Source: Promethearchaeota archaeon
GTDB lineage: Archaea; Asgardarchaeota; Lokiarchaeia; Sigyniarchaeales; SOKP01
NCBI GenBank assembly: GCA_019058365.1
Contig: JAHPZE010000022.1
Span: 8,750 to 72,749, forward strand
DNA length: 64,000 nt
Direction: 5' to 3'
Position numbers and translations under genes: made by a program
In this document: positions 1-50,983 of the stretch, one piece after another
How positions within the stretch are numbered: the stretch's first letter is position 1
Layout of the letters: every line of letters starts with the position of its first letter
Notes under the pieces: generated by a model
Databases searched by the model: none
Seen by the model: only the letters and a program-made list of their open reading frames with translations
Told to the model about the DNA's origin: nothing

Positions 1-2
1 CG

Positions 3-1760
3 TCATTTAAATCCACAAATCAGTTTGCTGGTAACTTTGATTTTGCCTCATTACCACAAGATACCTACACTATCATTTTTGAGTTTTATGACATCTCTGG
101 AGTTACTTCTACATTTGAATTAAATGAGAGTATTTTTATTGATTTTGAAGGGCCTTATATCTACAATCAATTTCCAGGATCTTCTACTTCCATAAATCCT
201 GATTCTGATTCCATCTCATTCATTATAAATGATATGTCCCCTATTGTAGATTATTACTTTAATAATTCCATTAATGGATTTTGGCAAGTAATCGGAGATA
301 CTTACACCTTTTATTTCAATGATACTTCAATATCAGAGGGACTAAATTCAATTCTCTTTAATTGTGAAGATTCTCTTGGATATACATCTACAAGTTATTT
401 TACTTTACTTATTGATAGAACCGCTCCTGACATCACCTTACTCTCAAAGAACTTTGATGAAATCATTACTAAATTATGTTCCTTTGATGTTCTCATTGAT
501 GATAACTCCAATTATGACATATCCTTGAAGGTTGTAGATTCCAATACTAGTGTTGTGTTTAATAATTTAGAATTCATTACGATAGAGAATCCTTCAGATA
601 CATGGCAAATTCTTTTTGATACAGGACAACTCCCAGATGGTTATTATGACATTTACATATGTGTTACCGATTCTGTAGGGAATTATGCTGAATTACTTAT
701 TGATCCCTATTTTGATAACACTCCACCCATAATTGATACACTCATAGAACAAATCTCTGTGGATGATCAAAATATCTATAATAATACTATTACTGATTCT
801 CTCTATTTCAATGACGAAGAATATCTCTATTTATCCGCTTCTGATATTACTTCAGATGGTTTTGATTGGGGTAGCATTAGCCCGCTATTAGGAGACCAAA
901 GAGGTGTTCAAAATGTTACAATGTATTATACTATCCCATTAGAATGGTATCCCCTCTCAATCTCAGGGAGTTTGGATTATGAGACACTAATTTATGAAAT
1001 TACGGGTTATGGAGATCCATTGAAGGGCGATCTGACCAAAATCAAGTCCATTCAGAACTTGAAAATAGGAGGATATACTGTTGATAAATTCAATATTATT
1101 TTGGATGGTACTTCTTTATTGCTCTCTATTGATCCTCAATATCGATACTTATTATCCTCAGCTTTTACAGACCAGATTTACGCTCAGTTCTTTGAAGCGG
1201 TTGCTGATCCAATTAACTTATCATATAATAGTAATACTCAAAATTGGGAATTAATATCTTTAGAAAGAAATTACTTTAACATTTCAGATTATTTGTCTCT
1301 TACTGAGGGAAACCAATTTCTTCTTTGGTTCGAATTAAAAGATGGGTTAGAAAACGAGTTAATTTCTCGTAAATATAATGGCTTTTATGATAATTATATA
1401 GGACAAGATCCTCAAGGAGCAGAATCATTTTCATGGTATTTGGGGGCTAATTCGAGTGGAGCAGGAATTATTATTTTTGGCTCGGATAATTATCCTGATT
1501 CCACGATTCAATTCAATATCTCTTCCATAGAGCTAACTGCTTTAGGAGAACAAGATATCCATCGCATAATGATTTATGGTTCAGTTGATTCACAAAATTG
1601 GATCTATATTGGAAGAGCGTATTATTCTGGTGAGGAAAATTTATGGAATTACTTCTGGGACGGGGATCGATTGGATCCAGTACCACCTCAAAATTATAAC
1701 CTTAAAGGTCTTTTATTTGATATAGCGGGAAATTATCTTACCCAAACTCATTCAATTAAG
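3..1760 (+). other. Tandem Ig-like (Big-type) domains within the giant protein
   Basis: Recurrent Ig-like signatures: IDRTAPDI, DTGQLPDGYYDIYICVTDSVGN, FDNTPPII, NYNLKGLLFDIAGN. Confidence 0.65.
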
Positions 1761-4700
1761 ATTTATGATTATACCCAGATTAATTTGATTACAGATTTAG
1801 TGTTTGGGTCGGTATTTGAATTCAATTATACCGCCTATTCAAATATTCAAAATATCGGAGGTATGATTGAAAATTATTTTGGCTCCAATAATATATGGGA
1901 TGTAATTGCTCAGTTTTATTCACCATCGGAACACACATGGATCCCACTTTTTACAAATCCAACCACAATTCATACCAACGGTTCATATGAAATAACATGG
2001 GACATTTCCCAAGATCACGGTTTTCTAGATAATATGTACAACTTTTCTTATGGTTATTTGCCATTACAAGTCGCTTCTGCTACATCTTCTGATTTGTGGG
2101 GATCATGGGGCACTTTTGGAGATACAATCTGGAAGCCCATAATTATTTCAGATGCAAATGGTAATATCAATATTACTATATACCTATTTAATAATGAGAC
2201 AGGATGGACCGTTGATAGCTCTTTAAGTTCTGAAATAACGATTCCTAACCTTAGCAATCAGGTATTTAAATTATTTGATATCAATAAAGATAACTCTTAT
2301 GAAATTCTTAGAGTCTCTCCTGCTCAAATTGACGTGTTGTTCCTCAATCAGACCACTTCTCAATGGGAAGTACAATTAGATGTTACACACCTTTCAGGCT
2401 ATGAATACCAAGCATTTGATATCTCATACGATAGAAGTTCCTCAGATACGTTTTTATTCGTTACTCAAAAAGAGACCAGTTCAAATCATTTATCCCTCTG
2501 GAAATATCAATTTACTAATCAGTATAGCCTTACCCTCATAAAATCTGTGGAATGCCCCGAAAATTTCGAACCTTATGCTATAAAATACAGTAATTATTTC
2601 TCTGGTTCTGACCGAAAAGCTCTAATTGTAGGGGGCTTGATTACAGACTCATACTATTCACAACTCATCGAATTTGATTCGAATCTGAACGTGAAAAATA
2701 TCATTATTGATGCCATTCTGGGAAAGATATCTCTCATTGAATATGATGATATCGGAGGGCTTGATACGATTGTACTAGGAGTGAAGAGAGTGCTCATAGG
2801 GAAAATGGATGCGGTTATCACTCTACATAGGACATCCGGAACAGAAGAGTGGGTTGAATTTGAATTATCTAATTTCGATGAAGTTAGGTTTGAAATTTTT
2901 GATCTTTTAACAATTTCTGAAGATTGTATGAAAAAATTAATTATCTCATCTAATACAGGGCTTTTTGAGACGAAAATTACCTCATTTAAAGATGAATTAT
3001 CAATAACCAGTCCTATATGTTTTTATTCTGAAACATTTACTATAGGAGAGTTAGCCCCCAGTTATTATCCTGAAATTATACCAGAAAAGACTCCTTTAAG
3101 TGCCGTCAATAAAATTACCTATAAACTCTCAAGCAGTAGTGAATGGAAGGTATTAAGTCTTAATAAATATCTAGCTTCTCCATATAAGGTAAAGATGGAT
3201 TTAACTTCTATATGGACTAATTTAGAATATGTGAAAATCGCATACTCGTTCAAATCATTTGTCGCAACGGTTCGAACTTCCGTTGATCCTTCATTTAACA
3301 ATAAAACAGGAGCCTCAGATACGCAATACATATCAGCTTCGGGCACCTTTTTCGATAACCTCCCCTTAAACTTCCAATGGTTAAACCCGGCAACAAGATA
3401 TATCGACCCTTATGCCAACTGGATTACTTTACCAAGCTCACTTTCCTATCAGTATCAACCGGTAATTTCTGGATTAGGAAATACCGTATTTTATCCCGAA
3501 GTGTATTATGGAGCGGATAATGGATATCTCCTTGCTCCCGAATTAGAGAATTATTTAATAGATTATGGAGATTCGTATGATTCAGGACAGCTATCGCAAT
3601 ATCTAAGCGGACAAGACGATTATTATACTAATATGTTTGACGGTAATTTCGAAGGGAATTATATAGATTATGTAGCTATGTCCAATCCTTACATTTCAGA
3701 CAATTACAACTTTGCTGATATGTATTATCCTGAAATTCAAGGCTCCGAAGGGGTTTATAATTCTTATGGTGATGGTCAATACGTCCTTGTGCGTAATAAC
3801 CTTATAGACCTTGAACCATATAACTCTAGTGTCAGTATCATATATGATTCTGGAACTCTTCCTGTGGAACTCACAGCTCATTATTTACGAGAGTTAAAAG
3901 ATGATGAGCCAGACTCTGATTATACTTATGGAACAGAAGGTGTTGAAGATGAAGAAAATTCTCATACAGACAATATGAGCTATTATGAGATGCAAACGCT
4001 AGGAGAGTATTTCCATCAACTTGAAGAATATAGAGAGCTTTTGTATGTAAATCTAGAAACTGATATTGAATATGATGGAGGGGATTATTATATTTCTTGT
4101 CATATTGAAACTACTGACGGTGCAATAGGGAGGTTATATATAAATGATCAAGTTGTTGCTTCTGGGACAATTATTGATATTTATCAAAAATTTTATGAGG
4201 GAATAAACAAAATTAATTTTGGTATTAATGAGCCAAACCTTCCAGGACCGGAATGTTACATTGCTAAATTATATTATTTCCAAGTGGCAGAAATTGATTC
4301 TAATAATCCTTCCATACAAGGCGCTCCAATAGAAGAAATAGAGGAAGTCTTGCTTGACTGGGAGCAATATATTAGCACAGCTAAGGAAGAGGATGGAGAA
4401 TTTGGATTCGAATTTACATACCAATTACCCGTGGTAGGCAAAAATACCCTCGATTCAATTCAATTAGCGTATGATGCCTCAATATCATCTACTGGCTTTT
4501 CTACTGAATATCCTCTCTCCATTCAATTCTGGAACTTTAAATTGAACAGATGGGAGAGTGTTCCGATGGCTCCTCTTGACGGAAATGACGAGCTAACTAA
4601 TCTTGATTATGACTTCTGGAGATATGGCTCTGAGACCTCTGGATATACTGATCGGTTCCGGCCAACGTGGAGTACGCTAGATTTAAATTCTACTAACACA

Positions 4701-7700
4701 ATTTCATATGGTGATACCTTTCCTAATACTCAGAGTGATAAACTAGTAATTGACGATACTATAAAAGATGGCGCAAGTTTTCTTTATAACAGTGATACTG
4801 GTCGTACTCATAATAGTGAATACTCTGACGATTTTAAATTTTTGACCTTTGATCCTGATTTCAATACCAATAAATTTCAGTTTGAGAATCTAATATTTGA
4901 TGTAAACCATTTTTGTACATATACGGAATCATCATTTCCGGGATATCATTCAGATCAAGCTTTTACACCTGTTGATTTTTATGATTTTGTCAATGATTTG
5001 AGCGAAATAAAAATTCGTATCCTTACAGAAAGAGAGCAATCTCAAGAAGCGAAAGCGTACCTGTGTATAGGAAATTTCAATACCTATGTAAATACGACAA
5101 CTAATTATCTTAATTATGACGAGTTTGAGGCAACAGTGAACGGCGTAAGTGATAAGCTTGATTTTACAGAGGATGGACTCGAATTATACGGCAATAGTGG
5201 AATTAGCATGAAGGAACCAGAACAAGTAATGAAATTTCGAGATTATTTTGCGAGGTCTAAATGGGAACTTTCGGGAACAGATGAGTATACCTTCGCATTT
5301 TCAGAGGATCTTGAGGGGTCTGCGGTTGCTCGTTCTTTGTACCCTAGTAGCAACTTTCCAAACTCAGATTTAACAACATATAATATACAAGACTCAGTAG
5401 TAGATTGGGGTGCTTTTTATATTGCACAAATAGGATCATATAAATCAGGCTCAATGATGGATACCCATACTGATAATGGTAATTCAATAAAATTTGATAC
5501 ATCAACAACAGGTGAAGCAAAAGTACGTTTCTACCAATATTTCGGGGGCTTTGAACCGAGCGGAAAGATGTTTGATGTGTATTTTGATATTCATACGACT
5601 GGGTTCAGTTCGATAGAATTATATACTGATAATCAAATAATTGCCTCAGACCTTTGGTGTTCTTCCCTTTCCGGTTCTGTGCGTATCGAGAATCCTGGGG
5701 GTACCAATATTTATGTAGAGACCAATTCATGGTATCCTCAAACATTGGAAATTGATTGGCTTGAAGTTTGGAATGTTGGGGAGCAATATGAATCATTTAT
5801 AGAACTCAATGAATTAGAGACATATTTCGGCAATAATGAATCAGACACTCATGAACTTCAGATTACACGTGATGATGTTATTTATGGAGATCTAACTTAT
5901 CTTTATATATACTCTACAAGCAGTTTTAGTAGTGAAGAATTAACATGGAATAACAGACCGAATCAAAATGATCTTGTTTCTCAACAAAAAGTAGATTCTT
6001 ACACACCTTTTACATTTAGCCTTGATTTAGGATCTACAATTGATTCCAGTCAATGGTTTAAAATAGATACGTCTGCCGGAGGATTGGATTATTGGGATCC
6101 TTTAGTATTATACGAAGTTTCGAAGAAAGGTCAACAAGGCGGGCTTTTATATATGCAAACCAACGAGACAGAAGATCTTATGCTCAAAAGCTCTGTATAT
6201 GCCCAGAATACAACGATCTTGCCAAATGATCAGCTTATTATTGACTACAAAACCACGACCTCTCATGAAATAACTTTAACATTATATAGTGATGGGGAAA
6301 TTACTAAAACATTTACCGTAATTGATTCGGGAAATCAAGATTTTTCTAACCAAATTATAACATTAACAACAGAGGAAGAAGTACAGTTTGATCAATTATC
6401 ATTTTCAGGTACGCTGGATGGAGGTCAATATTTCTCCGTTAATGATATTTCTGTTCATGGGGGACCTGCAATTGTGGATACTAAACTTTCATCCTATAAC
6501 TTTAATATTGATGCTCACAAACCTTATCTCCAACCAAGTACTGCGCAAGCTCTTACTAGCCCTATTTTTGCCTATGCTACCGATGAAGATTATTATACAA
6601 TTTTCTCAGGGAGAGAAAATAATATACCAAAAATTGAAATAGAATTTGAATTTACTTTTCCCCTATCAGATTTGGAAAATATGGATGATATGGAAATTAA
6701 GTTAGTGGCTATAGGAGAAGACATTTCTTTAGCTGATGGCACGTTTGAGCTGAAGAATTTTTCAAATGATGGAACTATTCCACTCAGTTTTGTTCAAGAC
6801 GGTGATGAATATACATTTTCTATTTCAGAAGATATATGGGAATTTTTGGTAAATGAAAATAATAATGGTGAATTAGAGTACACCATCGCATTTCGAATTT
6901 TATTGAGTAATATTAATGATTTTGTTCTTCGTATTGATAGTGTTAATGTAAACACATATCAAGAGTGGTCGATAGAGCATGATATCTATCGTGCTGCGTT
7001 TACATTTGAAGTTATAGGAGATCCAACAACAGGGAATATTACATGCGCTGTAAATGATGAGATTTCTTTTATTATAAATGCAACCGATCCCAATCTAGAT
7101 AAAGGTCCTAATAATGAAAATTTTGTATCGTTTTATTATGATTATTCTGGTGAGCAATGGTATGGCTTCTTAAATGATGACACTACCAATCGAATAAACG
7201 TGACTACCACGGAAGTTTCTTCGCAATTGAAGATTGGCACCAATTTTACCAATACAGATGAAGGTATCATCCTTAAACTGATTGAATCACAATATTATAA
7301 ACGAGTTCGTGATGGTGTTGATTTTGAGAAGTATAAAGCACTAATTACATCATATGCATTAGAATATGCCCACGTGGACGAGTACAGCACAGATTTCTTG
7401 GATTCATTTCTTACTCCAGAGAACGTATTTAGGCAAGTCTCGGCTGATATTGATGTTATTTATTCATTCCACGACGAGATGGTGCCTGATAATATTTTTA
7501 GCGTAAGTTTAAATCCAACTCTCACTTCGGATTATAGCGATAATTTAAACACATTTATCTATAATGAGACAGGAATTATAGCCGATTTTATTTCTAATTA
7601 TAATGATAGTTATACTATTTCTTCCATTTATGGGGATAGTCAACTTATATCTGGATCTCTTGAGAATCTTAATGATGAAAATGCAAATTATGCAAATTTT

Positions 7701-10700
7701 AGAACAACGTGGACATCCGCGCGATATGATTATAGTGAATTTATTTTCCCTCTTGGCGGATCGCTCGACTATTCGAGTAATCCATCAGGCTGGGATAAAG
7801 ATGATGATGGTTCTAAAAAAGTTTATAGTGCTAGCAATGAAGGGCATGACGATTTATTGATCCAAAATCCTTATTACATTTTCGATAACCCCAGTGGAGA
7901 TGCTGAAGTTGAAATTAAATTAAAATGGACATATTCAGAACTGGTTATTTCTGGTAGCTGTAAATTATACATTATGGATTGGATCGGAACCGGCTCACCT
8001 GAGGATCCTGAACCCTTATATGAACAACTAGGAGATGCCTTTACGTATGGTCAGTGGCATTCGCAGACACTTCAGATTTCTTCTGAGCATACGTATTATC
8101 CTGGAGTAGGGAATCAAATACAGCTTATGATTGAAACGAATACAGGAGACCCCATAGATAAAGAGCCAGATGTTACTGTAGAAATTGAATATTTATATGT
8201 GGATTTTAAAGACAATTATGATACCTCGTTTGTAGGTTTTAACTTTTATGATAGTATTTTAAATGGGCAAAATACATTCATTTTAGAGTTTAACGGAAAG
8301 ACGGATTCTTCGAGTTTTACTTCTGAACTTTTAGTTGATGATGTATCTGTTCTTTCCTTCAGTAATACATTCTCTTCCCTTGATAAAATATGTTATAATG
8401 TTGATTCAATAAAGGTGTGGATTGCTGATGATGGAGATTTTTATCCTGAAGGCAGGCAATTAATATTGGATTATTTAGTGTTAAAATGGCTCGACCAAGA
8501 TGTGGATTATCATATCAAAAACGATAAGCAGATTGTCATTAATCAAACATTATCAAAAAATAATTATCGCCAAGATTCTACAGGATTTTACGATGATCCT
8601 TTCTTTTCCAAGAATACGCTTCATTACACTCTTAAGAATTCCCTTCAGACACCCATTTCTAACCGTTCTGATGTTCAATTCTCCGTAGATCTCGCCCTCA
8701 CCGATATAGATTTTGATTTTGAGGTGTATCCCGAAGTTGATCCTCAGAGTTTTGTTCTGGAAGACACTAATATTGAGGGAAAGAATTACAATTCAACACT
8801 GCTGCAAAACTATACGATATTCGCATCCAGCAGATTTAAAGATAGTGCTATAAAAAATATCCAGATTCCCTTAGTTTCTTTCTTTGACTTGGATTTTGAA
8901 GATATGAACTTTGATGATTTCGAGCAAATAGAATTAGAACTTGCATTAGATATGAACCTTTTGCTCAAAAATAGAAAAACTGATTCTGATTGGTCTTTAC
9001 GATTGAGATTAATATACTATAATTATACTTCTTTACAATGGGAAGATTTTAACGGTATGTTGAGAGCAGAGAATAAGGGGGTAGAGAACACGGTATGGAA
9101 CCCTGATTTACAAGATAATCATATTGTCTATTTGCAAAATCTAGCTGAGGATTATTTTATTCCAATATCAGATACGAATAATATTCATATTAAAAATCCG
9201 ATTACCATCAAAAGTATTAGTAACCATACCATTTACGATGGTATAATGAAATTTGCTTTAATTTCATACATCTTACCTTCAAATTATTCTATTGAACCTG
9301 ATGCTCCAGAAAATTATTTTACCTATGAACGAGAAAATCCACAAATCCCGATTGAAATTTCTCAAGACGTTACAGTGCTAGAGTCTATTATAATAGGTGA
9401 ATCGAGAGAAATTATGTTCCCTGAATCTTCCATAGTAGCAAATCTCCCATTAGATGCCAATTTTAGAGCTAATTTGACTCAAATTGAAGACCTTGGAGAG
9501 ATCATTGCTGTTCGAGGGATTTATGTCGATCCCTATGGTACTAAATACAAATATCCGATTGATTATTATTGGACTACGACATCTAATGAACTTGCGTTTA
9601 ATTCCCCCCAGAAATATACCTTTACCAGCGTTCAGATTGAATATATCCCCCAAATTGCCTTATCTTATAATGAATATGATGGATATTGGTACTTACCCGA
9701 ATTTTATTTTGCTCATGGAGATAATTTTACTCAGCCATTTTTTGTAAGTGATCTATACGTGGATGGCAGTCCCTATGGAACATTCATACATCCTGATGTA
9801 GATGTCGGATATACGTTAGATACAAATGAATACGGAACATATGTTAACTTTAATGAGACTATTACGCCCCCTTCTATTGTTTATGGATCAATTCATTTTG
9901 CTAAAATAAATGATACATATTTATATACTTTTGATTTAGGAGATGAACTTTTATATAAATACGATATATTGAATGATGGAACTGAATATGTTGGTGGAAC
10001 ACTTCATTTAGATCTCAATGTTGGATTTAAAGATGTTATTTATTCAGAATTAACCCAAGTGTTATGTGATAGTTATACCCTAGATATCGAGTTATTTAGA
10101 ATGTATACGGATAATGACGATGAGATTACCTTACATCGGATAGGGAAAACAACAATCCCGCTCGATACCACTCTTTTAGGATATCATGAATACACTTTTG
10201 ATATATCATTAAGCGATTTCTTCAATTATCCTGAAGATCAAGAAGAATTTATAAGAGCTATTACCCGAGGGACCTCAAATGACCTTTATGTAGTGATAAA
10301 TAGTTCAATCGTGAACTGTTATGTTGATGGGAACCTATTTAAAGGAATGTACGCCCATCAGCTTACTTCAGCAAATATGGAAATTCAAACTGCACAATCT
10401 CAATTAGTATTTAACGATGATGATGTTGATATACCTTACATTCCAATCTCCCAAAATGATGTTGTATTAACAAAAGTAGCTCCTGGAAGCTATTTATTCG
10501 ACTCAAGTGCTTTATCATATGATTTTAATTTTATCTTAGATGAACTTCACACCGATACTACTATATTGTGTAATAATACTGATTATACATTCGATTCTGA
10601 GTCAAAAACGATTACTTTACTCGGAATTTATCGTGATTATGCAGGATATTTGCTTGCAGATATTACATATAAAGCATTTGAATGGCAAAGTGGAAGTGTA

Positions 10701-13700
10701 TCCACTTTAGAACCAATAACGGTCTCGTTTTCCCATGACTATGTGAATAGTATCACGAAATATTTAGAATTATCGCTTCAATTTGATCAAGATGGCATTC
10801 CAGGAGTAGAACTTGAAAGAATTGATGAGAATTCGGGAAGAGTGGTATTGGCTTCTGAGAAAAAAGCCCCATCTCTTCTTAATATCTATATGTATAATTT
10901 TATTACTAATACGTGGGAATGTATTGATTTTGTTACCTACGACGATTACAGTGGAACTAATACCTTTTCTTATGTAGTTGATCGAAATTTCATTACATTT
11001 GAAAATTTTTTCAATTCAACTGTAACAGACGAGTTTGAAGCCAAATTTATGTTTTCTATAGATGAGGATATGGGAGAGAGCTTTACCTCTCATGCAACCT
11101 TTAATATAATTTCTATTGAAGCTAATCTCTATTATGATACTCCTGATTCTGAACACTCCATTAACCCTGCTGTTGAATTTGATGTAGATTTGACTGACTA
11201 TCTTACAAATAATGAGATTTATGTAGAAGAAATATCTTTGGATCTGAGTTATGAGAGCGATATTGAGTTTGATTGCGCCTTTTTATTTGCCCAATACCTT
11301 CTTTTGGAAGAAAACTATAATCTATACATTATGAATAAGTATCTTGAATTTGAGGAAATTGAGTTTGAAGACGACTCTATCACCCTTTCTCGAGAAGACA
11401 TTTATCAATATATATTCTTTGATATGGAAAATGAAAGATATTACCTTACACTAATGTTAGAATATGATTGGAATTGCATTCTTGAGATGAATTTAGGGAG
11501 TGATTCCAAGCTTGAAGTTATTTCCACCTTAAATTTACTCAAATATGACCTTTCTGTGTCATACACGCTATATGAAACTACGCGTATTTCTGCCTGTGAA
11601 ATTAATGTTCCATATCAACTTATGGCAATTTATGCTCCCAATTATATACAAGATGAAGATTCCATTTATGTATCACCTGACAATGATGAGATAATTGATA
11701 TTGGAATATTCGGAGGATTTTTACGAAATACCAATACAAAACAAAGGCTTATGCTCCGACAACAATTATTTTATAATTTTACAGAAAGCCAAACAGGATG
11801 GTCTAATATCCTTTTAGATCAAGAGTATTCCGATGTAATATTACGATTTACTGTACCATTTGGCTATTTACAGTCTCCTAATACCTATTTAACTAATACC
11901 ACTACATTTATATTTAAAACTGATCCGGATGTTGTTGCGGTGGAAATGTATTATAATAATGGTGAGCAATATATTAAAATTGGGGATATGGAAACAGATT
12001 CACTTGACTCTACTCTATTTTCTTATATATGGACCGATATTATTGGCGATACAGGAGCTTCAACATTAGATCCTATTTATATGATGTTTAATATAACTGA
12101 CTTATTTGGACAACATGCCAAGTATTATTATAGCAGAGTTGCCGAATTTGATATTCCCGCTCCTACGATTAGTATAGGCGATGGGACAAAAGATTATCAG
12201 AATCAATATATCGCCGATCCAGACACTCCTATTACTTTTAATCATAACGAGGAATATTTTCAATCCTATAACCCTCTCTATGTTTATCCGACTCAGCCTG
12301 GTGATTTTTATAATATTTATGGCTCAAGTAATTGGAATGGAAATCTCTACACTTACGATGACGATTCATTTACAACTTTTACTTCTGATGCTGTAACATT
12401 TGATTATGATTATGAAAGTGGAGATTCATACTATTATGAGAAATGGAATGAAGGCTTCTCCGCTGAAGACCATATGACTCATGAATATTATCCCGACGAT
12501 CATAGTTCTTCTTATTCGGTTGAAGGAAATTTATATATGGAGAATAATTTTCCTTACGAATATTACCAAGAAGACTACTCAGGGTGGAATTTAAATTATA
12601 ATTCAACTGATACAACTTCTTCTTTCAGTAATGGTGATCTAAGTTCTGAAATTAATAGTGATATCACTTCTAATACTCCTATTCAAGCACAGATTCCTAC
12701 TGGAGATTTCGATATGATTAATGGTACATCCAATTGGGCGGGAGATCTTGCTGTTGCAAATGGTGCTTCATATACTACATTTACTTCTGCATCTAATGTC
12801 ACCGAAGGGTGTTATCCCGCGACATATTCTTTTGAAGGCGAAATAGATGGAACAACTGGGACAGACATAGATTTCATAGACTATGTATCAACTTACGGTA
12901 CTTGTAGGATCGACGCTTCTTATGGTGGTCATAATAAGGTACTCTACGTAAAAGATTCATCATTTAGCGCAGGATTGCAATTTCACCATTATTTAGATAC
13001 TTCGAGAACAACTGGAACTGTGGAATATTGGTTCGCAATGACAGATTTATATTATGGTAACAATGATTATGTAACTTTCTATAGTTTGGATAATAATGGT
13101 CATGCTGGGTTTACTATAGCTGCAACAGATGGATTGTTTATTGATGCTCAGTCGAATACTGCTTCTATGGTATATAATACATGGTATCATATTCGAATAG
13201 ATTTTAATTGTACCGCGGGAACATACGGACAGTATGATTGGTACTTAAACGGAATTTTACAATATTCTAACGTTGAGATGGGTGATAGCTCTACAAATGT
13301 TGAGAAATTGGTTATTCGTGGGACTTCAGCGCCTCAATCTGAATCTTACTTTGATGCATTTGGATTTTCATGGGATGCTAACTATATTCGCGGTGATAAT
13401 TGCTATTGTTATAATTATGAAGACGTTACATCTGATTTTGAAAGCGAAGACACATATACAGTAGGTACTGATATCGGTTTTATAGATTCTAAGACTATTG
13501 GTATGCTTGCGGGAATAAAACCAAGTTTCGATGAACATAAAAAAGTCCTCCATCTTATAACTGCTCTCAATTTACATCAAGCAAATAATTATTTCTCTTC
13601 TGCCCAAACCTCAGGTACGGTCGAATTCTATATTAAGTTGGCAGGAACAGGCGTTAATAAATATATCGAAATATATCATGATATTAACAATAGACTTACG

Positions 13701-28700: not shown

Positions 28701-31700
28701 ATGCCCATATCTACAGGTGAAATAAACCCTCAATATGACGCAAAAGCAATTGTAACACCACCTGACAGCCTCAGAATCACTGGACGCATGGGCGATTCCA
28801 ATTTTACGTTCTTCGGTATTGAAGAAAAAGAACTAAACTGGTGGGATAAGTTTTGGATGAATGTATTTGAGGCTTTAGCTGGAGGTGGCGACGCAATGGC
28901 ACCAGGTTCTGGTATTAATTTCCCTGAATTTACTGATGCGGAGGAGGAAAACATTAGAGATATGCTAAGAGCTGCTTCACATGCCTATACAAATCTGGAC
29001 TACTTACTTATAACAAGCGAATTGCCATCATATAATATCATTGAATATTATGAGTTCGATCATGGAACGGAAGATTATCGCACTATTGCATATGATAATT
29101 ATAAAAGTAATACGTTAGGATTTTTAGAGCAAACCATGATTCCCGCTTCAAATGGAAAGTATAATGCAATAAGACCGATGTGTATTAATGGTCGCCCCGC
29201 ATACATGTATATTAACAGCAATGATGAGTTCAATCAGCGTATCCAACCACTTTCACCGTTATATCAACCCGTTGTCATTAGTAATGAGCGATATGGAGTG
29301 CTTTTTCCAGACGATACCATCCCAGACTCTACGATTTCAGTTGATATCCAAAGCGGATTGTTAAACGATTCCTATACTTCAGGTATTGACTCTAATAATC
29401 TTACAATTTATGAATATAAGCGAGGGTATAAAGCAAAAATTCCACTCTATAGCGATGAATTTAACTATCCAATTAGTTTGATCACGGTTGAAGTTATTAC
29501 TTCAGGTGTAAGTTCAGGTCTATTATCCAGTACTTATTTTGCCACCTATGTTTCGGAAATCGAGCTTACGTCCAGTCAATATACTCTCGAAGGAGGTAAT
29601 TTATACTTTTGCGAAACTTTTGATGAGATTATTCTTTCAGCTTTTAATTTTAAAGTATTGCAAGACGAGTTTCTAGAATTAACTCAGAATTGGGAGGAAG
29701 GGACCCTCTTTTATAAAGTTCATATCCACATTCCGCAAGTGATTGCAGATACATCTACGACCGCAGGAGTTATCGATACGATATCCAGTGATGCTGGCAG
29801 AAGTGCGTTAGCTCAGACCACTCAGTATTTAATTAGTGATTTCTTTAACGTATTCACCTTAGCAAAATCATTTGCCGAAGGTGAAGCACAAAAAGATTAT
29901 ACCGTACAAGTTACAGCAATTTCCACCCTGATATCTTCTTTAGCCCTTCTGCCCGTTGTTTTCGCCTCCGCTGGAGTATCGGGTTTTATTAAAGGTGCGG
30001 TTGGCAGGACTATAGGAACAACTGTAGCAAAATATGTTGCGTCGTTGCCAGTTCAGGTACTACAAGAAGTATATGAAGAGCTTTATATTGACTCATTTAT
30101 AGAAGAAACATTACAGCATTTGGGCGACTCTACCGGTATCTGGGGCGTTATTGTCACTTCATTACGGGAAGCTATACTCGGGCCAGCAGCCGAATTCCTA
30201 GGAAGCCTCAGAGGATCTTCAAACGTAGATGTAAATACCCAGATGACCGCTCAAGAAGTTCAATTACAACAAACAAGTAATATCTTACAATCATTTTTAT
30301 GGACTGGTCATCATGTTATGCAAGAGGCAACATTAGATAATGCCATCTCTTCGGACGTATCAACTGAAGCTCAATTATTAAGTAATAATATAAATAAGAT
30401 TCAAGCCCAACTTGCAGAACTGGGACTTACTCGACAGAAGAATAAAATAAAGGCAAAATCTATATTCGGCACGGAATTCATAATTCAAGGAATCTTCTCC
30501 CTTCCTGGACTCTTCTTTGGCGGGTTCAATTTAGGCGCGATGGGAACGCTTCTTGACCTGTCAATCGATTATATGTTTGATGTCCAATTATCTCGCCACA
30601 TGATCGACAATAAAATCCAAGCGGTAACTCAAACGAAGCACAGATTAGACCTTGAAGCAAAGTATTTAGGATTAGTACGCGATGCACAAACCGTTTCTAA
30701 TATCCCTCAAGTCAAGTTCGTACTTGCCATGGCACAAGGGATTGCCACCATCAACCCAAGCCAATACAGCGCCTCCGAATTCCAAACTCAAGTACAACTG
30801 CAAATAAATCAACTCGATGCATTCGGCACAATTATAAGGTCTGTGAAAGAGAAACAGCAAAAAATCAAAGAAAGGCAGAATCAATTGGAGGTTCTAGGTA
30901 GTTCTAAAGAAAATGTCGAGAGTATAGAGCAGAAATTTCAGAATAATCCTAATCCGATACAGCTACATCTCAATCTCGAATTTCTGCCTGGAATGATTGC
31001 GTTTGAGCCTCACAGGCAAGCTCTTCGCGTCTGGAGTGAGGAAAATCCAGAAGGCATCAACCTTAACCCCCCTTCCGATTTAACACTTCCCGAATTTGAG
31101 CTCTACATAAAGAATAAATTAGGATTAGATCGAAGCCAAGAAGTTTTTCTTGCGTTAACCCTAGTTGATGAGAGTACCAATGAGATAATCCAAATCAGAG
31201 TTGATGAGAAGATTGGTGATTTAGAGATTGACGATCAAACCACCATTGGTGAGATTTCCAATGCTATGAATGGATATAATTTATATATAATGCCTCTGAC
31301 TGCGGGCGCTTGGGGTGGTATTAATTATGATCCAAATTATATTGTACCTATTTATGATTGGTTGTTTGAACCCCCTTCTGTAAAGATTATAAGAGAAAAG
31401 ATGGGAACACTATTTGATTCTGAAATTATATCCAAATATTTTAGTGATCCTGTATTACAAGAGCAACTTATAAACATATATTACCAAGTTATCACCCCTA
31501 CAGCTAGAGCTTATTTGGATAAGATTTCTACAGGAACAGTAGGATCCGTTTTTGGAGCCAATTCTATATTTAGTGGGAAAAATTCGTTTGAATGGATTTC
31601 CAGAACTGCAGAATTTTATTATTTGTTACAGTTAGAAAATTCTCCTCAATATAAAAATATGAATCTAAAACTAAAGAATGCAAAAATTAAAGAATTCAAA

Positions 31701-34700
31701 GCATATATCAGTGAAATAATCGAATTTGTATTGAAGCCTCGATTCGAGAACACATTTGATGATGCTAATAAAGGCTTAGATTTTATTAAATCTTTATTAG
31801 AAGAGAGTGCCCGATATGCAATTATGGAAATGATTTTGTTACAAATTACAGATGGAGGTAAAACTAAATTAGAAGGATCTGAGTTAGCTTCCAAATTAGA
31901 AAACTTTTTAGCTAGTTATGACAAGAATAAGTTCATTAAAGAGTTTAATAAAAAAGGTACTAAATTTGTGCAACTCCGTTTCATGGAGAGCATGCTTACA
32001 GGTGAGTGGGATACACAGATGCGCTTTGATTACACTCCATATGAAATTGGCTGGTACCGTGAGACTTTTTCATTTATGTTCCTTATTAGTGATTCTCTTA
32101 TTAAATTGTTTTTTGATGATGAGTTTGACTTAATGGCGGGGTATGATAGTAGTGCAGATAAGCATACAAGAATTCAATTTTATCAGACAATTTCGTATAA
32201 TCCAAAATATGTTCACAAAGATTTTAAAGATTTTATTGATACCGATCTTGAAGCCGTTTATAAAAAGTTAAATAATGGGTTAGCTGAAACTTTTGGAAAT
32301 TTAAAGAAGCAGAATTTCAGAATCACTGACCTCTTCCAGATGTATATTAAGGGACTAGCATATATCAATTATGCCATCAAGAATTCTAGGACCTCTGATA
32401 ACGAACTAATGCTTAATAATATCGCAATGGATACTTTAAGCACTATTTTTGGTGCGTTCTTTAAAAAAATATCTGATAAAGGTACAGCAGCTGAGATTGA
32501 GAAACAAATAGAAGTATTAGTAGTTGCTAGTAAGGTTGGAGAGATTGCTCCTATTGGTAAGATTATTAATACTATAGTAGAGACGCATAAATTAAGTCAG
32601 CTCCATCAAGCGGGAAAAGAAGATGGTTTTTGGGTAGAGGGTGAAGGAACAGGTAAAGGTCCTGACCAAATGGAATTCTATATTACTATAGCAGATAAAA
32701 TAAATGAGAAGTTAAAATCAGAGTCTATTGATAGATCCGATATTAATAAAGTTGTAAAGAAAATTCAATCTTATTTAAAAGATGTGGATTTCAAAGATGA
32801 AATTAAAGATATAGCTAAAGATATTTTAGGAGCAGCCTATAAAGATATGGCGGTCAGTGAGATTTATAATATTGTTAATAAAGAGTTCATAGGGGGTAAT
32901 CTGAAGAGAATACTTAAACAAGATGATCAGGGTAACTATCAACTTGAGTGGGATATAACAATAAATGTATATAAACGTACTGATATTGATATTGACGAGG
33001 CAAAATTAGCGAATTCAGGACTTTTCTTTGTTATAAAAGATAGAAGTGGAAAATTAGCTAAGATGACTTATTCCCAAGTTAAGCAAATGTATCCTAAATT
33101 TGATTTTAAACAAGCATGGATAGCCGTAAAGGATAGGAATAGTGGCAATGGATTAATGTCAGCAACAGAGAAGATCAATGATTTACCAGATTCATTGGAG
33201 AATGATATTTCAGATAAGTTTGGGGATATTGAAGGAGTCTATATAACAGACCATAGTGGAAAACTCTTACTCGGAAGGATATTTCTTGACAAAGATTTCT
33301 ATGAATTTGCTGTTATGGAGGATGCAGAGATTTCTCAGCTCTTAAGAGAAAGTATAGAGCATATTAAGAATTATGATTTCCCCGGCGCTGATAGGATCAA
33401 TGAATTTTTCCATCTTACATATTTACGTTCGATTTCTTGGAAGACGGGAGGGAGAATTAGCTCAATTATTCAAGATGTTGATTCAGCAATCATCCCTACA
33501 GGACCTCATAAATCAATTTTTTCCATAGAGAGAGCAGCAGTTATTCTAGGGAAAGAACATGTGATACTCAATCCAGACCGAAATAAAATTACTGAATTGA
33601 AAGGGGAATTATCTGCATTATTGAATGTTATTAATCAACTAGGTGGACTGTATACTTCCCACGAATTATATAAAGAGAGTGAAATAACTCCTAAGATATT
33701 TCCAACTAAAGATTTTGCCAATTTACATTCAAAAGAGAAGATATTTGGAATTAATGAATTTAGAACAATGTTAGAAAAAGTGGTGCCAAAGCAAGGAGGG
33801 TGGCTGCACAATAAAGATCCTTCCAACCCGTTACTTTCAGATTATTGGTATGAACATCTTGCACGATTTTCTGAATATTCTTATAATAATAAGCTAACAA
33901 AGGAACAATTTTATAAGAATTGGCTTTTAATAATTCAGAATGATTTAGAGAGAGGCTCGCCTAGTGGTTATTTCAAGGGTTTTGAAGATTTAAAAGGGAA
34001 GACCTTTACAAGTAATTTTGAGGATAAAGTTAATGATGATTTAATCCATAAAATCGATGAAGCGGTAAGTAATGCCATCGGGTATCCTTACTACATCAGC
34101 CTCCTTTCGGGAATCCTTACCATATATCATCCATTAGGATCATTAGGCTCGGGACTAATAGAGATAGGATTTCTATTACATACAGACGAAAAACAAGCTG
34201 AACTTTTGAATGATTGGAATCTAAGGGCGCTTCAAAGTGGAAGCTATAAATCGGAGGGTAGAGCTTATTTGAAGGGTTATACAGAAAACAAAGGTATCTC
34301 ATACGATAAATCTGCTTTAGTATTTGCTTCACTATTTCTATACGGATTTTATCATCATATTTCCGATAGAAAATTATCATTTGAGCTTAGCCGCGATAAG
34401 AGCTCGATTTTATCACATTATTATAGTAGATTTTTGCCGCAGAAAATTACGGATTATAAGACTGCGCTTTTTAATTTTATTTCCACAGAATTCAAATCTT
34501 ATATGGATGCTGAATACATTGATAAGCGTAATACCATTGAGAGGGGTATAATTAAAGAGTTCTTTCTTAAGGCGCTAGATAAAGCTTTAGAGATCAAGTT
34601 TAAAAAAGAACCCTGTTCTATCTATAAGCAAGAGCGTATAACAAAATTGTATAGGACTTACTTAATCAATTTTATTGATGAACCATTTCATTCACTGAAG

Positions 34701-35657
34701 CACTCGGGTAAAAAAGATTCCCTTCATGATTTTGTAAGATATCTACGGGATATAGCCCATTCAGGTAATGATGGGCTCATTACTCTGGATCCTGGGATTG
34801 CTCGACATGGAATTGCTGATCCTATCGACATTTTCATTGAATATGATAAGCTTTCAAAGATTTTGCCGGAGATAAGTCAAACCTTTAATTTTTATTACGA
34901 CTCACATAAAGAATTGGGGCATAGCACTAAGAGTCCGAATTATAGGATAGTATATGATCTTTTCTCGGGAGAGTTAAATAAGAAGATTGAAAACACATAT
35001 AATAAGCTCCTAGAAATGTTTTATAAAGTCGACGAGAATGGCAAGCTAACTACTGAGTTAAAAGATGAGCTAAATGTTAAAGAGTTTACAGGAACAGAAT
35101 GGACTTTAAACTTTTACACTGAAACAGATAAAGGTGTTAAGAAGTCGCCGACGCATCTAGGATTATCTCCTACCGGATATTCATTTAATATAAACGATCC
35201 AAAACAAGTTCATAAAGCAATTGTCACCTTACTGTTTTGTACCTTATTGGAAGATCGATGTTTTGGTGTAATCTTTGTTGCCGGAGATGATAAGAATCAA
35301 TTCTTCTATTATGATAAGTACGGGCTTTATTCGGAAGAATATTTTATGGAATCAGAACATGCGAAGAGTGTGAGATTTACAGGTTCCCACTTCTGGAATC
35401 GATATGCACCAAGTTCTTCGTTCACTAAGGCGGAGTACCAGAAGTACATCGACGAGTTAAAGGATAATCCAGATGAATATCTTAGCGTCAAGGATATTAG
35501 GAATTTTCTTGAAATGCAGCCATCTCGTCAGAACGGTGATGCTGACATTAGATATTATATTATGAATAAATTTATTAAATTCTTTTCAGAATTTTACAAT
35601 GCTGATTTCCATAAGATTGGAAACGTATATGATATAATCGAAGATCTTTTTATATAA
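3..35657 (+). CDS. Giant (>=11,884 aa, 5'-truncated) multidomain cell-surface/membrane protein: acidic ectodomain, hydrophobic segments, Ubl-like domain and Lys-rich C-terminal region
   Basis: The ORF track starts at ATG 234, but the frame is stop-free back to base 3 ([33 protein letters not shown]...), so the true start lies upstream of the window. D/E/Y/N/T-rich with many N-x-S/T sequons up to ~29.5 kb. Hydrophobic segments at ~28.4-30.6 kb. Stop TAA at 35655-35657. Confidence 0.93.
   Translation, partial: [11884 protein letters not shown]
12807..13400 (+). repeat. LamG/concanavalin-A-like protein repeat, copy 1
   Basis: YPATYSF...GHNKVL...TTGTVEYWF...[10 protein letters not shown]...[18 protein letters not shown]; aligns by eye with copies 2 and 3. 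Confidence 0.7.
13419..13988 (+). repeat. LamG/concanavalin-A-like protein repeat, copy 2
   Basis: EHKKVL...[10 protein letters not shown]...[11 protein letters not shown]...[18 protein letters not shown]. Confidence 0.7.
16857..17495 (+). repeat. LamG/concanavalin-A-like protein repeat, copy 3
   Basis: YLATYSF...DGHKKVL...STGTIEFWV...[10 protein letters not shown]...[18 protein letters not shown]. Confidence 0.7.
30954..31319 (+). other. Putative ubiquitin/SAMP-like beta-grasp domain inside the giant protein
   Basis: [35 protein letters not shown]...[12 protein letters not shown]...[14 protein letters not shown] parallels ubiquitin ([24 protein letters not shown]...[10 protein letters not shown]...LHLVLRLRGG) and the SAMP/MoaD-type tail (hydrophobic-P-x-x-x-GG). 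Eye alignment only. Confidence 0.5.
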
Positions 35658-35674: not shown

Positions 35675-37297
35675 TTATCCATATTTACTTGTGTGAACCG
35701 TCCATTTGCCAAACTTTGTTTTTAGCCACTCAATTTCGGATTCACTAATTTCTGTTCCTTCTATATAAAGGCTTTGTAGAGATTTAAGGTTAATAGTTGT
35801 TGGCGGTAAACTTCGTATAGGATTATCACTAATGGAAATTATTTCCAGCTTATCTAATTCTCCAATACAAGGAGGTAATTCTGAAATATTATTATTTCGA
35901 ATTCTTAAATCTTTCAATGTTTTTAGTTTACATATTGATTCAGGCAATCTTTCTATTTGATTTTCTCCACATTCGAGATTTACTAGTGAAGTCAATTTAC
36001 CAATAGAAGAAGGAAGTGTTGATATTTTATTACTGTCTACATCAAGCCATGTAAGAGTTTTAAGATCTCCTATTGATATAGGTATTTCTTCTAGAAGGTT
36101 TTTACTTAGAGTGAGAGTTTGTATCGATTTAAGGTTCCCAATAGAATCCGGAAGTTGCTTTATCTGATTATTATAAAGGTCTGCATATCTGAGAGAATTT
36201 AAATTCCCAAAAGATTTTGGAAGAGTCATTAATTTATTATCGCGTAAATCTAGTCTCTTTAAAGAAAGAAGATTTCCGAATGATTCTGGTAAAGTTTCAA
36301 GTTCATTATCAAATAAATTTAAGTTTTCTAATCTTTTCAAATTCCCAAATGATTCAGGTAATTTTATTAGTTTATTGTTGCTAAGATTTAACTTTTTTAG
36401 AGAAGTCAATTTTCCAAACGATTCAGGAAGCATCCTTAATTGATTCGAAGAAATTCTTAATTCTTCTAATGATTTAAGATTTCCAAATGATTCAGGTAAT
36501 TTTTCCAAATTTACAAATATCCTAAGTTTTTTTACAGATTTCAATTCCCCAATCCAATCGGGAAGACTTTTCAATTGGTCGCTTGAAATACGTAATATAA
36601 CTAAGTTTTTCAAGTTTTTTATTATTTCAGGTAATTCTTCTATATAACACCTTGCAAGATTAAGTTCCTTCACTATTCCTTCTTCCAATAGAAAGCTCTG
36701 ATCATAGCGAGAGTCTTTCGAATCTAAATAGAATTCTTTTTCTGTTAATCTTTCTAGTTCCTTTATAGCGTTCTCTTCTTCTACTAATTTGAACAGGCTA
36801 TATTTTTCTTCTCCTGTTATCAACTTCATATATTTTTCTTGGAGCAAGAATTTTTGGACGTTCTTCGTCCCGTTAAAGAATCGAGAAATTATTTCTTCTT
36901 TAAATCTTTGTTTTGCTTTTAAATCTCCGACTTCAGTCAGTCTTTTTAATAAGGGGAATGAAAGGTTGCTGTGAAGGAGTCGGGTATCATAATTATGTTC
37001 TGCCCATGCTTGAATATTTGAGCAATGAACCAAGAATCTCACATGAGGTGGAATATCTATTACTTCCACTTCAAAATTATCCTCATACATATGGTAAGGA
37101 GCATTAGCCACTTCATCTACAGACAATTCTGTTAATTCATCAATAGAATCAATTTGTTGAAGCTCTTTTAATCTGTCAGCTTGTCTATTTAGTAAAATGA
37201 TTGAGCAATGTTCGAACAATTCTCCATTTACATAAAGATTTGTCTTCTCATCTTCAAGTTTCAAAGTAATAAATTCATTTATTTTATATTCAACCAT
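35675..37297 (-). CDS. Leucine-rich repeat protein with Lokiarchaeia-type N-terminal domain
   Basis: About 13 LRRs of 23 aa (LPESFGNLKSLEELRISSNQL). N-terminal domain EYKINEFITLKLE...HCSNIQAWAEHNYDTRLLHSNLSFPLLKRL...KEEIISRF resembles a family I recall from Lokiarchaeal LRR proteins. Confidence 0.92.
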   Translation of the reverse strand: MVEYKINEFITLKLEDEKTNLYVNGELFEHCSIILLNRQADRLKELQQIDSIDELTELSVDEVANAPYHMYEDNFEVEVIDIPPHVRFLVHCSNIQAWAEHNYDTRLLHSNLSFPLLKRLTEVGDLKAKQRFKEEIISRFFNGTKNVQKFLLQEKYMKLITGEEKYSLFKLVEEENAIKELERLTEKEFYLDSKDSRYDQSFLLEEGIVKELNLARCYIEELPEIIKNLKNLVILRISSDQLKSLPDWIGELKSVKKLRIFVNLEKLPESFGNLKSLEELRISSNQLRMLPESFGKLTSLKKLNLSNNKLIKLPESFGNLKRLENLNLFDNELETLPESFGNLLSLKRLDLRDNKLMTLPKSFGNLNSLRYADLYNNQIKQLPDSIGNLKSIQTLTLSKNLLEEIPISIGDLKTLTWLDVDSNKISTLPSSIGKLTSLVNLECGENQIERLPESICKLKTLKDLRIRNNNISELPPCIGELDKLEIISISDNPIRSLPPTTINLKSLQSLYIEGTEISESEIEWLKTKFGKWTVHTSKYG

Positions 37298-39283: not shown

Positions 39284-39335
39284 ATAATCACATCTCTTTT
39301 TCTCATTTAATTAAATTTAAAATTTAAAAATTTAT

Positions 39336-42089: not shown

Positions 42090-42712
42090 AAGTACCAGTA
42101 GGTTTTTTTATTAACTTATTAAAATGATTACGATTAATTTATAATTTTAGTCAATATATTGATAAATAATAAATTCCTTAAAAGAGAGACGGAATAAGAT
42201 AATCTGATTTAATAAATTGTTTCTCCTGTAATCTTATTCACTTTTAAATGCCTAAATTTTGCTTTTTTTCTAATAGGCTCTCTGCTAGCTGAAATTATTT
42301 AATAAATTTTCTGTGGTAAAAGATACTTTGCTGATTATTTTATCATTTCCTTCGTTTCTATAGAATTAAATAGTTTTAAGTTTTCAATTGAATAAAATAA
42401 TTAGCTCATTAAATCATATTTGTATCAACAGAAAAATCAAGAAATTCTAACTTTCTATAAATTCGAGATATTGTATTTTTTTAAAAAATCAAAATCCTTT
42501 AGGTTATCAACGGAATTATTTCTCTTAAAACAAGTAAAACAAATATATATACAACTAAATTTAATTTGTTCATAGACTTTCCTTAAATTTTATTATATCT
42601 AATTGTCGCGAATTCCATAAATTAAATATAAAAAGTAAAAAACCTTCTAAATCTCATAACTAGATTCTGTTGCATTCATTAAAAAACAAAAATTATACAT
42701 AAAAAAGAAATA

Positions 42713-44131: not shown

Positions 44132-44157
44132 ATTTTTTTTTAATATTAATCTTCTTG

Positions 44158-45270: not shown

Positions 45271-45384
45271 TTAAAATTAACACCTTATATTATATTATAT
45301 TAACAATATTATCCTAAATTCAATAATCTTAAAATACTTTTTAAAATATCTTTATCATGATAACACAGAATTTAAAACGGTAAA

Positions 45385-47241: not shown

Positions 47242-47244
47242 TTT

Positions 47245-48540: not shown

Positions 48541-48595
48541 ATAAAGCATTAGGTTATTATTCTATTAAAAATTTCTTACAAATTTAAAAAAATAT

Positions 48596-50086: not shown

Positions 50087-50396
50087 TATTATACCAAATT
50101 TTCAATTTTATAATTGAAATGATAAATTAAATTTGGATTTCTTTGCTTATAAAATAAATACCTTTTAAAATATCTCATTAGACCCTCGATTTATTCAACC
50201 TTAATAATTACTCACTTAGAAATATATGCATGGTATTAGCTTAGGCAAAAAAAAGGGAAGATAATAAGTTTGTAGGTGTTTTAAATACTTAATAGAAGAG
50301 ATTGCTTTCTTATCAAGCTTTTTAAGATAGAATAGCATAAATATAAATTAGTAAAGAATTATAATTATTATTAGAAAAAACATAATGTGAATATTA

Positions 50397-50972: not shown

Positions 50973-50983
50973 AATTTCTTAAT

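Follow-up and report, generated by a model that had tools for sequence, protein, structure and literature searches.

A giant membrane-anchored protein of a Loki-type Asgard archaeon with a C-terminal region kept free of glycosylation sites and a layout resembling contact-dependent toxin systems

Introduction

Bacterial polymorphic toxins, such as CdiA/CdiI, Rhs, WapA and MafB (PMC3482391), are built on a very large surface protein with an N-terminal anchoring or trafficking part and a long stalk, in which a conserved region precedes a strain-variable C-terminal part. A partner gene lies by the 3' end, and orphan C-terminal cassettes carry partners of their own. Leucine-rich repeat (LRR) proteins are one of the listed immunity classes, Imm-LRR, and classical polymorphic toxin systems are rare in archaea (Zhang 2012, PMC3482391). 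Here, we analyze 64,000 nucleotides of a Promethearchaeota archaeon genome (assembly GCA_019058365.1, contig JAHPZE010000022.1, positions 8,750 to 72,749), referred to as the window, which holds most of a gene for a protein of 14,544 amino acids (aa). This giant has a membrane anchor and long stalk, a conserved junction module ahead of a variable tail, a small or repeat-type partner gene by its 3' end that co-varies with the tail type (linkage only), and orphan tail cassettes, the last found in relatives (e.g., genome G269). Its layout most resembles that of bacterial contact-dependent toxin delivery systems.

Several differences separate the giant from these systems. Unlike CdiA/CdiB and Rhs proteins, it is devoid of TPS, FHA, RHS and VENN elements, and the Pfam models Haemagg_act, Fil_haemagg and RHS_repeat match nowhere in its 14,544 aa. 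Unlike polymorphic toxins, it has no HINT or PrsW processing domain and no recognizable toxin domain. Its anchor is an N-terminal bundle of 11 transmembrane (TM) helices in a single archaeal membrane, its variable part measures 650 to 1,870 aa and falls into few families, and its junction module has no known fold; in each of these respects it departs from the bacterial pattern. We know of no bacterial counterpart to the exclusion of glycosylation sites described below.

The protein also fits among the huge archaeal proteins surveyed earlier (PMC11573180), being archaeal, at least 5,000 aa long and Lokiarchaeial, with a confident Laminin_G_3 domain in its N-terminal region and few other domains. 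In that survey, the commonest archaeal architecture at or above 5,000 aa is a single N-terminal Laminin_G_3 domain, with 12 examples from Lokiarchaeota and a function that is not understood. Giant Asgard proteins are also listed by Wu 2022 (PMC8813620, Extended Data Fig. 7). As these sources present them in their available text, such giants are known by length and Pfam content, and the junction module, sequon-free tail, LRR linkage and orphan cassettes are not described there. The "aloposon" giants of Heimdallarchaeia are different in kind, being tandem genes of 3,000 to 6,000 aa in mobile elements. Among archaea, contact-dependent antagonism is known to have been demonstrated only for a haloarchaeal contractile injection system (PMC11566945), and our literature search found nothing that links Asgard giants to contact-dependent toxin systems or that describes sequon exclusion.

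One intact gene

We code the source genome G000 and its relatives G001, G003, G024 and so on, the window being G000:C47:8750-72749. A first-pass annotation, made from the sequence alone, had reported a frame stop-free from base 3 whose product exceeds 11,884 aa and has its N terminus off the window. Both statements hold: the list of open reading frames (ORFs) gives base 3 to 35657, or 11,884 codons, with a TAA at 35655-35657, and an ATG was found at C47:772, 7,978 nt upstream of window base 1. On the contig, the same frame runs over C47:733-44406 (14,557 codons), of which the window (1..35657, plus strand) contains the 3' 82% of the gene, residues 2,661-14,544 of 14,544. From its first ATG, the gene encodes 14,544 aa (1,665 kDa, pI 4.23). 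The upstream extension that the annotation had called for, in search of a start and a signal peptide, thus yielded the start; no cleavable signal peptide follows it, a 215-aa cytoplasmic region coming first. The annotation's placing of the protein among very large archaeal products also agrees with an earlier survey, in which archaeal proteins above 10,000 aa are few in total and most are held by Asgard archaea (West-Roberts 2023, bioRxiv 10.1101/2023.11.21.568195). The annotation proposed no function; the features most telling in this respect, namely the module and tail without sequons and the LRR partner, are found toward the 3' end of its interval and immediately past it.

At the local composition (~34% GC), a codon drawn at random has a probability of 0.074 of being a stop, equivalent to one stop in every 13 to 14 codons. 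The chance of a stop-free run is ~1e-398 for the 11,884 codons in the window and ~1e-487 for all 14,557, and a chance open frame is therefore excluded. The gene makes up 0.92% of a 4.74-Mb genome of 29.5% GC that carries archaeal SSU rRNA and in which the second-longest open frame has 3,293 codons.

G003 has an intact colinear frame of 12,745 codons (six-frame search of related genomes), that of G014 is colinear over at least 11,803 codons and reaches the contig end, and that of G024, at 20,619 codons, is intact within a 329-kb contig. These three align with the G000 protein in long blocks at 39-62% identity and differ from one another by the gain or loss of whole modules, and a partial protein from a marine sediment metagenome (LCGC14; 6,917 aa) is ~46% identical and colinear with residues 6271-12758. 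The gene had been suggested to be old and maintained. This is borne out by relatives that stay colinear with it for more than 10,000 residues, at 39-62% identity, in frames intact at 11,800-20,619 codons. Synonymous sites are saturated at such divergence, and maintenance was therefore judged from the conservation of the open frame in place of dN/dS. Matches to a profile of the junction module include 16 further open frames of 9,130-20,619 codons in 13 independently assembled genomes, and some relatives' giant frames sit inside contigs of 200-400 kb. Two genomes, G060 (C135, C95) and G253 (C24, C23), have two giants each, of 12,456-13,906 codons and all with the module; in both, one giant has a type 2 and the other a type 1 tail (see below). 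A second, partial module lies downstream of the giant in G045, and a close relative of the G000 tail is annotated "Promethearchaeota archaeon Loki_b32."

On one metagenome contig of 4.6x coverage (L034), the stalk end and the module start occupy different, overlapping frames (L034:3-983 and 925-8523), the switch falling at the equivalent of G000 residue ~12,005. Either a frameshift introduced in sequencing or a true division of the gene, with the module and tail apart from the stalk, could account for this. That low-coverage contig is what could be cited for a mis-assembled locus, a pseudogene in decay or separate genes taken for a single one. We consider such an artifact very improbable, given a contig without Ns, 14,557 stop-free codons, and a colinear layout that is intact in the 16 further frames from 13 independently assembled genomes. 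This is one real, intact giant gene, and its product is a membrane-anchored surface protein of a Loki-type Asgard archaeon.

Across the phylum, the module profile is present in 53 of 400 genomes. Within the window's own family, 49 of 134 genomes bear it, in several genera; elsewhere it occurs in 1 of 14 and 1 of 22 genomes of two other families and in 1 genome of a third. A gene to which the cell devotes 0.9% of its genome, and which about a third of the family's genomes retain, must therefore matter to it.

Anchor and stalk

Residues 1-215 are rich in both Lys/Arg and Asp/Glu and contain no Pfam domain. They are followed at residues 216-560 by 11 hydrophobic helices, whose loops alternate perfectly in their Lys/Arg counts (10/0/3/1/7/0/4/0/4). 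This alternation places the N terminus inside and everything past residue 560 outside the cell, and the predicted topology is thus a 215-aa cytoplasmic N terminus, 11 TM helices and an extracellular remainder. In all four complete homologs, the last TM helix comes after a Lys/Arg-rich loop and before acidic sequence. Neither the whole-protein scan nor a scan of the N-terminal TM domains from four giants, the latter relaxed to E ≤ 5, gives a PrsW match, and no other known membrane domain is detectable in the N-terminal TM region.

The stalk that follows (residues 561-11,999, ~11,400 aa; window 1..28019, plus strand) was characterized by composition and by Pfam, PDB and Atlas scans. It is acidic (pI 4.05) and rich in Tyr, Ser, Thr, Asn and Asp. 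Its only confident Pfam domain is a Laminin_G_3 at residues 1481-1641 (55.7 bits, cutoff 27.6); a weaker second Laminin_G_3 and a marginal GH114_assoc are the further matches. Self-comparison and iterated profile searches give six ConA-like units, ~1,150 aa in total. Three of these lie in the window: two tandem Laminin_G_3-type beta-sandwich units at 12813..13988 (plus strand; residues 6931-7126 and 7133-7322) and one at 16863..17495 (plus strand; residues 8281-8491), which overlaps the weak Pfam Laminin_G_3 match. The gene had been described as mostly non-repetitive, and this proved right at the protein level, where self-BLAST finds only a few repeats of ~30% identity and the iterated profile only the six units in 1,150 aa. 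A stalk composed of one repeated domain was considered and rejected on the same grounds. About 90% of the stalk is non-repetitive and unmatched in Pfam, PDB or the ESM Atlas. Atlas feature searches with the tail and with 2,000 aa of stalk returned nothing usable, and PDB sequence and profile searches with the N-terminal 2,660 aa, the last 2,884 aa and the module, tail and tail-end profiles returned nothing significant.

Junction module and tails

The stalk ends in the junction module (window 28020..30602, plus strand; residues ~12,000-12,860, ~800 aa), the best-conserved part of the giant in all relatives. An exhaustive search of 1.84 billion representatives with the module profile returned 256 clusters at the 50% identity level, 113 of them at E ≤ 1e-30, mostly metagenomic fragments with the module ahead of a long tail. 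Among the conserved motifs are ALAQTT-Y-I-DYFNQYT, TFWSTLIS and VTS-REA, in addition to those named below. The module holds two or three Gly/Ala-rich hydrophobic helical elements. The first, a Gly/Ala-rich tip (28413..28541, plus strand; residues 12131-12173), caps a long helical hairpin and is followed by a conserved cluster of Lys and Arg. An alpha/beta "island" (28992..29786, plus strand; residues ~12,324-12,588) carries the motifs NLDYLL-TSELPSYN, NTLGFLE, IRPMCINGRP-Y, AKIPL and GGNLYF. Beyond it, within a bundle of long helices, a second hydrophobic helix (29910..30104, plus strand, for helix and ladder together; residues 12630-12660) is followed by an acidic ladder, E-x3-E-x3-D-x3-E (residues 12682-12694), that is invariant in an alignment of eight sequences (A1).

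A structural model of the module (AlphaFold2 [AF2], 135-sequence alignment, 712 residues) has a mean predicted local distance difference test score (pLDDT) of 81.9 and replaced an earlier eight-sequence model (pLDDT 44), which was discarded. It consists of a long helical hairpin with the hydrophobic tip (model helices 12-60 and 65-102, pLDDT ~90) and a helical bundle. Fold searches with this model (Foldseek against PDB, VIA-align wide, and Atlas) matched only generic helical hairpins and no known fold; weak rows included the haloarchaeal pleomorphic-virus protein VP5 (E 0.35-2.2). The diphtheria toxin T domain and the colicin pore-forming domain are membrane-inserting translocation domains of protein toxins. 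As in these, the hairpins of the module lie among long amphipathic helices, adjoin conserved acidic residues and stand just before the putative cargo. A fixed cassette boundary within the module was also considered. The start positions of N-terminally truncated matches are nearly flat, with modest peaks, and we therefore claim no such boundary.

Homologs are colinear up to residue ~12,800 and then diverge, their tails clustering into at least four types. Two families are large, type 1 (~1,450-1,870 aa, as in G000) and type 2 (~650-1,090 aa, as in G003), and there are a few singletons, such as that of G024. The G000 tail (30423..35654, plus strand; residues 12,801-14,544) comprises 1,744 aa and 201 kDa, with a pI of 5.6. 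By composition it is Lys-richer and looks helical and cytoplasmic. The center of the G000 tail (residues ~13,200-13,850; window 31620-33572) is common to most type 1 tails; for the final ~700 aa of the tail (33573-35654), only 4 of 31 type 1 tails have a counterpart.

Sporadic matches to known domains occur among the tails. One tail (P0139) has a deaminase-like HxE...CxxC end that gave promising counts in alignment scans; a direct scan reached only 16.6 bits, below the cutoff of 29.6, and a toxin-deaminase assignment was rejected. Another locus (L042) has an appended domain of ~140 aa whose best PDB match is the CdiA toxin domain (CdiA-CT), at a non-significant E of 0.31. Weak Pfam matches in type 2 and singleton tails (alignment A4) comprise LAGLIDADG_3 in three (best E ~1e-6) and Peptidase_S24 in two, which could mark nuclease tips, inteins or self-cleaving elements, and there is a weak match to MarR. 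Ubiquitin-like signals are recurrent and weak: a tail profile against Atg8 (E = 0.0076), one Pfam ubiquitin match (E = 1.1e-7) and one ThiS. In the window, the stretch concerned, at 30825-31070 (residues ~12,935-13,016), is 75% identical to P0003 and is also found in separate ORFs of G005 and G001.

Exclusion of glycosylation sites

N-glycosylation takes place at N-X-S/T sequons, and glycoproteomics has demonstrated it in P. syntrophicum, a Lokiarchaeon in culture (PMC11284389). We counted these sequons against the number expected from composition (observed/expected). The giant has 155 in all, about what composition predicts, and its stalk has 145/129; the stalk being predicted to be extracellular, these sites would be available to AglB. 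The last sequon is at residue 12459 (window 29397-29405), inside the island. The 2,086 residues after it contain none, a stretch twice as long as any other in the genome without sequons, and the G000 tail has 0/11.5.

Relatives show the same absence. The tails of five homologous giants have 0/47.5 sequons, with stalks at 1.1-1.45 times expectation, and three more tail relatives have 0/51.7. In a survey set of 150 representatives, no two sharing more than 50% identity, pieces of stalk ahead of the module have 289/292, modules 94/427, and 76 tails (62,207 aa) 4/461, a ratio of 0.009. Twenty further complete tails from genome assemblies, some of which may overlap with the representatives, have 0/~174. 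Within the module, positions 1-280 of the hidden Markov model (HMM) contain 3 sequons in ~19,000 residues and positions 560-815 contain 2 in ~23,000, with the depleted zone beginning ~130 residues before the first hairpin. The island (HMM positions 320-555), with 88 sequons, is the only sequon-tolerant part.

Control motifs in the tails occur at normal rates (S/T-x-N, 0.84 of expectation; Q-x-S/T, 1.03; D-x-S/T, 0.91; N-x-D/E, 1.00), and the depletion is therefore specific to glycosylatable sites. The minor acceptor N-x-C is likewise absent (0/10.9), and the non-acceptor N-P-S/T is enriched 2.9-fold (43 against 14.9 expected). For comparison, sequons in all ORFs of 250 aa or more across the genome stand at 1.05 of expectation, and none of the 107 G000 ORFs with at least 7 expected has fewer than two. 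On these counts, the module outside its island and the tail are under strong and specific selection against glycosylatable sequons.

The oligosaccharyltransferase AglB/STT3 is encoded in G000. Its match, at G000:C52:45422-46558 (plus strand), is part of an open frame that, at 1,301 codons, is unusually long.

The pattern bears directly on an integrin-like arrangement in which the protein would be anchored at both ends, the module helices serving as TM segments that return the chain to its own membrane, so that a cytoplasmic tail could bind LRR proteins, actin or small GTPases and tie the extracellular loop to the cytoskeleton. The hydrophobic segments of the module, with the Lys/Arg cluster after the first, are compatible with such a loop, as are the Lys-richer, helical, cytoplasmic-looking tail and the Asgard signature genes for cytoplasmic proteins that neighbor giants (LRR genes at 16 of 25 loci, lokiactin in G003, Arf- and Ras-like GTPases in G024). 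A cytoplasmic domain, however, never meets AglB and should have sequons at the neutral rate, as seen genome-wide (1.05) and in the tail-linked LRR proteins (0.8), and not at 0.009. In addition, the sequon-free zone begins ~130 residues ahead of the first hairpin and flanks the hydrophobic elements on both sides, and a simple in/out topology therefore fails to explain it. The hydrophobic stretches are, moreover, rich in Gly, Ala and Ser, unlike the Ile/Leu/Phe-rich N-terminal TM helices. A two-anchor loop thus seems improbable to us.

As cytoplasmic proteins are sequon-neutral here and the purge is near complete, the affected parts probably meet the oligosaccharyltransferase yet must never carry a glycan. 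The signature is unusually clean, with 4 sequons against 461 expected and matched controls, and it allows a testable prediction of where the protein meets the glycosylation machinery and has nevertheless to be kept bare.

Linked LRR genes and orphan cassettes

A convergent gene for a 540-aa LRR protein (window 35675..37297, minus strand), by eye without a signal peptide, ends 18 nt past the stop codon of the giant. LRR homologs also abut the stops of related tails in Loki_b32, two metagenome contigs and G005. Family membership was defined by BLAST single linkage to the Pfam-confirmed G000 copy. Of 25 loci surveyed, 16 have a member of the LRR family no more than 4.5 kb downstream of the stop, beside both tail types and on either strand. 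Linkage by chance is expected at ~1.4-3% per locus, which gives a binomial P of ~7e-19 (p = 0.03). Eight copies beside type 1 tails share an N-terminal domain (M-E-F-K-x-N-E-F-I-x-L-K-L-E...) that is absent beside type 2 tails; its invariant C31, H91 and C92 may form a metal site. The LRR gene is thus linked to the 3' end of the giant and co-varies with the tail type. The tail-linked LRR proteins have 46 sequons against 57.5 expected (0.8), close to neutral. A complex prediction of the LRR protein with tail residues 13,395-13,849 scored 0.00, with the partner fold itself uncertain, and counts neither for nor against binding.

Other loci have small co-directional ORFs, of two families, 50-90 nt past the stop. 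In G269 (L043), the region past the giant comprises, in this order, a gene for 156 aa, a tail-end fragment of 117 aa that is 39% identical to the tail end of its own giant, a 165-aa paralog of the 156-aa gene, a 1,263-aa orphan consisting of island, bundle and type 2 tail, and, 70 nt beyond, an LRR gene. In Loki_b32, the combination of island, bundle and tail is a stand-alone gene of 2,244 aa behind an unrelated ORF. Such orphan cassettes with partner genes occur in relatives and not in G000.

These features also bear on whether the giant could be a passive component of the envelope or matrix, serving like halomucin as a protective coat or as a spacer, with a C-terminal part that must fold or pack glycan-free. 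The huge, acidic, glycosylatable stalk with its ConA-like lectin domains would suit that role, and archaeal giants with an N-terminal Laminin_G_3 domain are listed without a known function in an earlier survey (PMC11573180). Left unexplained would be the module hairpins, the tail-type-specific partners, the orphan cassettes and the patchy spread over 49 of 134 genomes of one family, and we find a passive coat quite improbable.

Possible contact-dependent delivery

We favor, at a probability of roughly 45%, the reading that the giant is an archaeal counterpart of the bacterial contact-dependent polymorphic toxin systems. On this proposal, the glycosylated stalk would hold the module and tail a few hundred nanometers off the cell. 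Upon contact, the hydrophobic hairpins of the module would insert into the membrane of a neighboring cell, and the tail, or its variable C-terminal part, would be threaded across. A glycan on the threaded chain would block its passage, which would account for the purging of AglB acceptor sites from exactly these parts, whereas the island would remain outside, hence its tolerance of sequons. The LRR protein would be a cytoplasmic, immunity-like partner that neutralizes tails arriving from sister cells.

Several observations weigh against this interpretation. In a Pfam scan, which toxin folds outside Pfam would escape, no toxin or immunity family exceeded its curated cutoff in ~100 tails or in the tips and small partner ORFs; the only toxin hints are the sub-threshold deaminase of P0139 and the non-significant CdiA-CT match of L042. 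The tails form a few large families, compared to the many small toxin types of bacteria, and at 650-1,870 aa they are far above the usual size of a toxin domain. No HINT or PrsW processing domain was found in the whole-protein scan or, for PrsW, in four giants. The LRR family is large, with 15 matches at E ≤ 1e-20 in G000 and 15-32 copies per genome (up to 32 in a relative), and it may have other roles. Translocation itself is a proposal.

The lack of toxin domains would be better accommodated by a non-antagonistic contact organ serving adhesion, kin recognition, membrane fusion or the formation of bridges. Its glycan-free tip would attach to the membrane of a sister cell or syntrophic partner, or enter that membrane. 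The tail would either make a close contact surface bare of glycans or pass into the partner without harming it, with the LRR protein acting as an intracellular adaptor. The anatomy is the same as for delivery, the tails fall into few conserved families with a conserved center, and the ubiquitin-like matches in tails (ubiquitin at E = 1.1e-7, ThiS and weak Atg8) point in the same direction. Cultured Lokiarchaeia live in obligate syntrophy, which we also count in its favor. Adhesion alone, however, does not require the removal of ~460 expected sequons from 62,000 residues, and archaeal surface proteins ordinarily carry glycans. Tail fragments that occur as orphans with paralogous small genes, and partners specific to a tail type, are, moreover, hallmarks of conflict systems. 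We regard such a contact organ as a serious contender that is nonetheless rather unlikely.

In its more specific form, contact-dependent delivery would mean that Lokiarchaeia own a translocation weapon or probe composed of a 1.2-2.4 MDa glycosylated stalk, a module of new fold, a glycan-free cargo of 70-210 kDa and a repertoire of LRR antidotes, a picture that we advance only tentatively. If it is correct, the strict absence of sequons from an exported domain would be a general, sequence-only mark of polypeptides that cross a second membrane in N-glycosylating organisms. It would further imply that a contact-dependent effector system has been built in archaea from a scaffold of their own and a new membrane-active fold, and some of the greatly expanded LRR genes of Lokiarchaeia would gain a functional context. 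Should delivery prove to be the wrong reading, the module, with 256 clusters, a confident model and no known fold, is still a well-defined target for structural work and membrane biochemistry.

Other neighboring genes

Genes of other kinds adjoin the giants of two relatives. In G003 (C7), a lokiactin gene (L030:1273-2418, minus strand; Pfam Actin, E = 1.5e-132) is convergent with the giant ~0.8 kb past its stop. Between the two is a 148-aa ORF of a small family that also occurs after two other type 2 tails. In G024 (C13), two co-directional small-GTPase genes (L027:4365-6289, plus strand; Arf-like, E = 1.4e-12, and Ras-like, E = 1.4e-7) follow the 20,615-aa giant, the first of them 61 nt past its stop.

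In the window itself, the region beyond the LRR gene (37826-52339) is a sugar-metabolism neighborhood with an FGGY kinase, a GlcD/GlcF-like FAD oxidase with a CCG protein, a phosphoglucomutase, two SIS/GlmS-type genes, a GlmU-like nucleotidyltransferase, an alpha-amylase-family gene and an HGD-D protein. These genes could supply UDP-GlcNAc for glycans.

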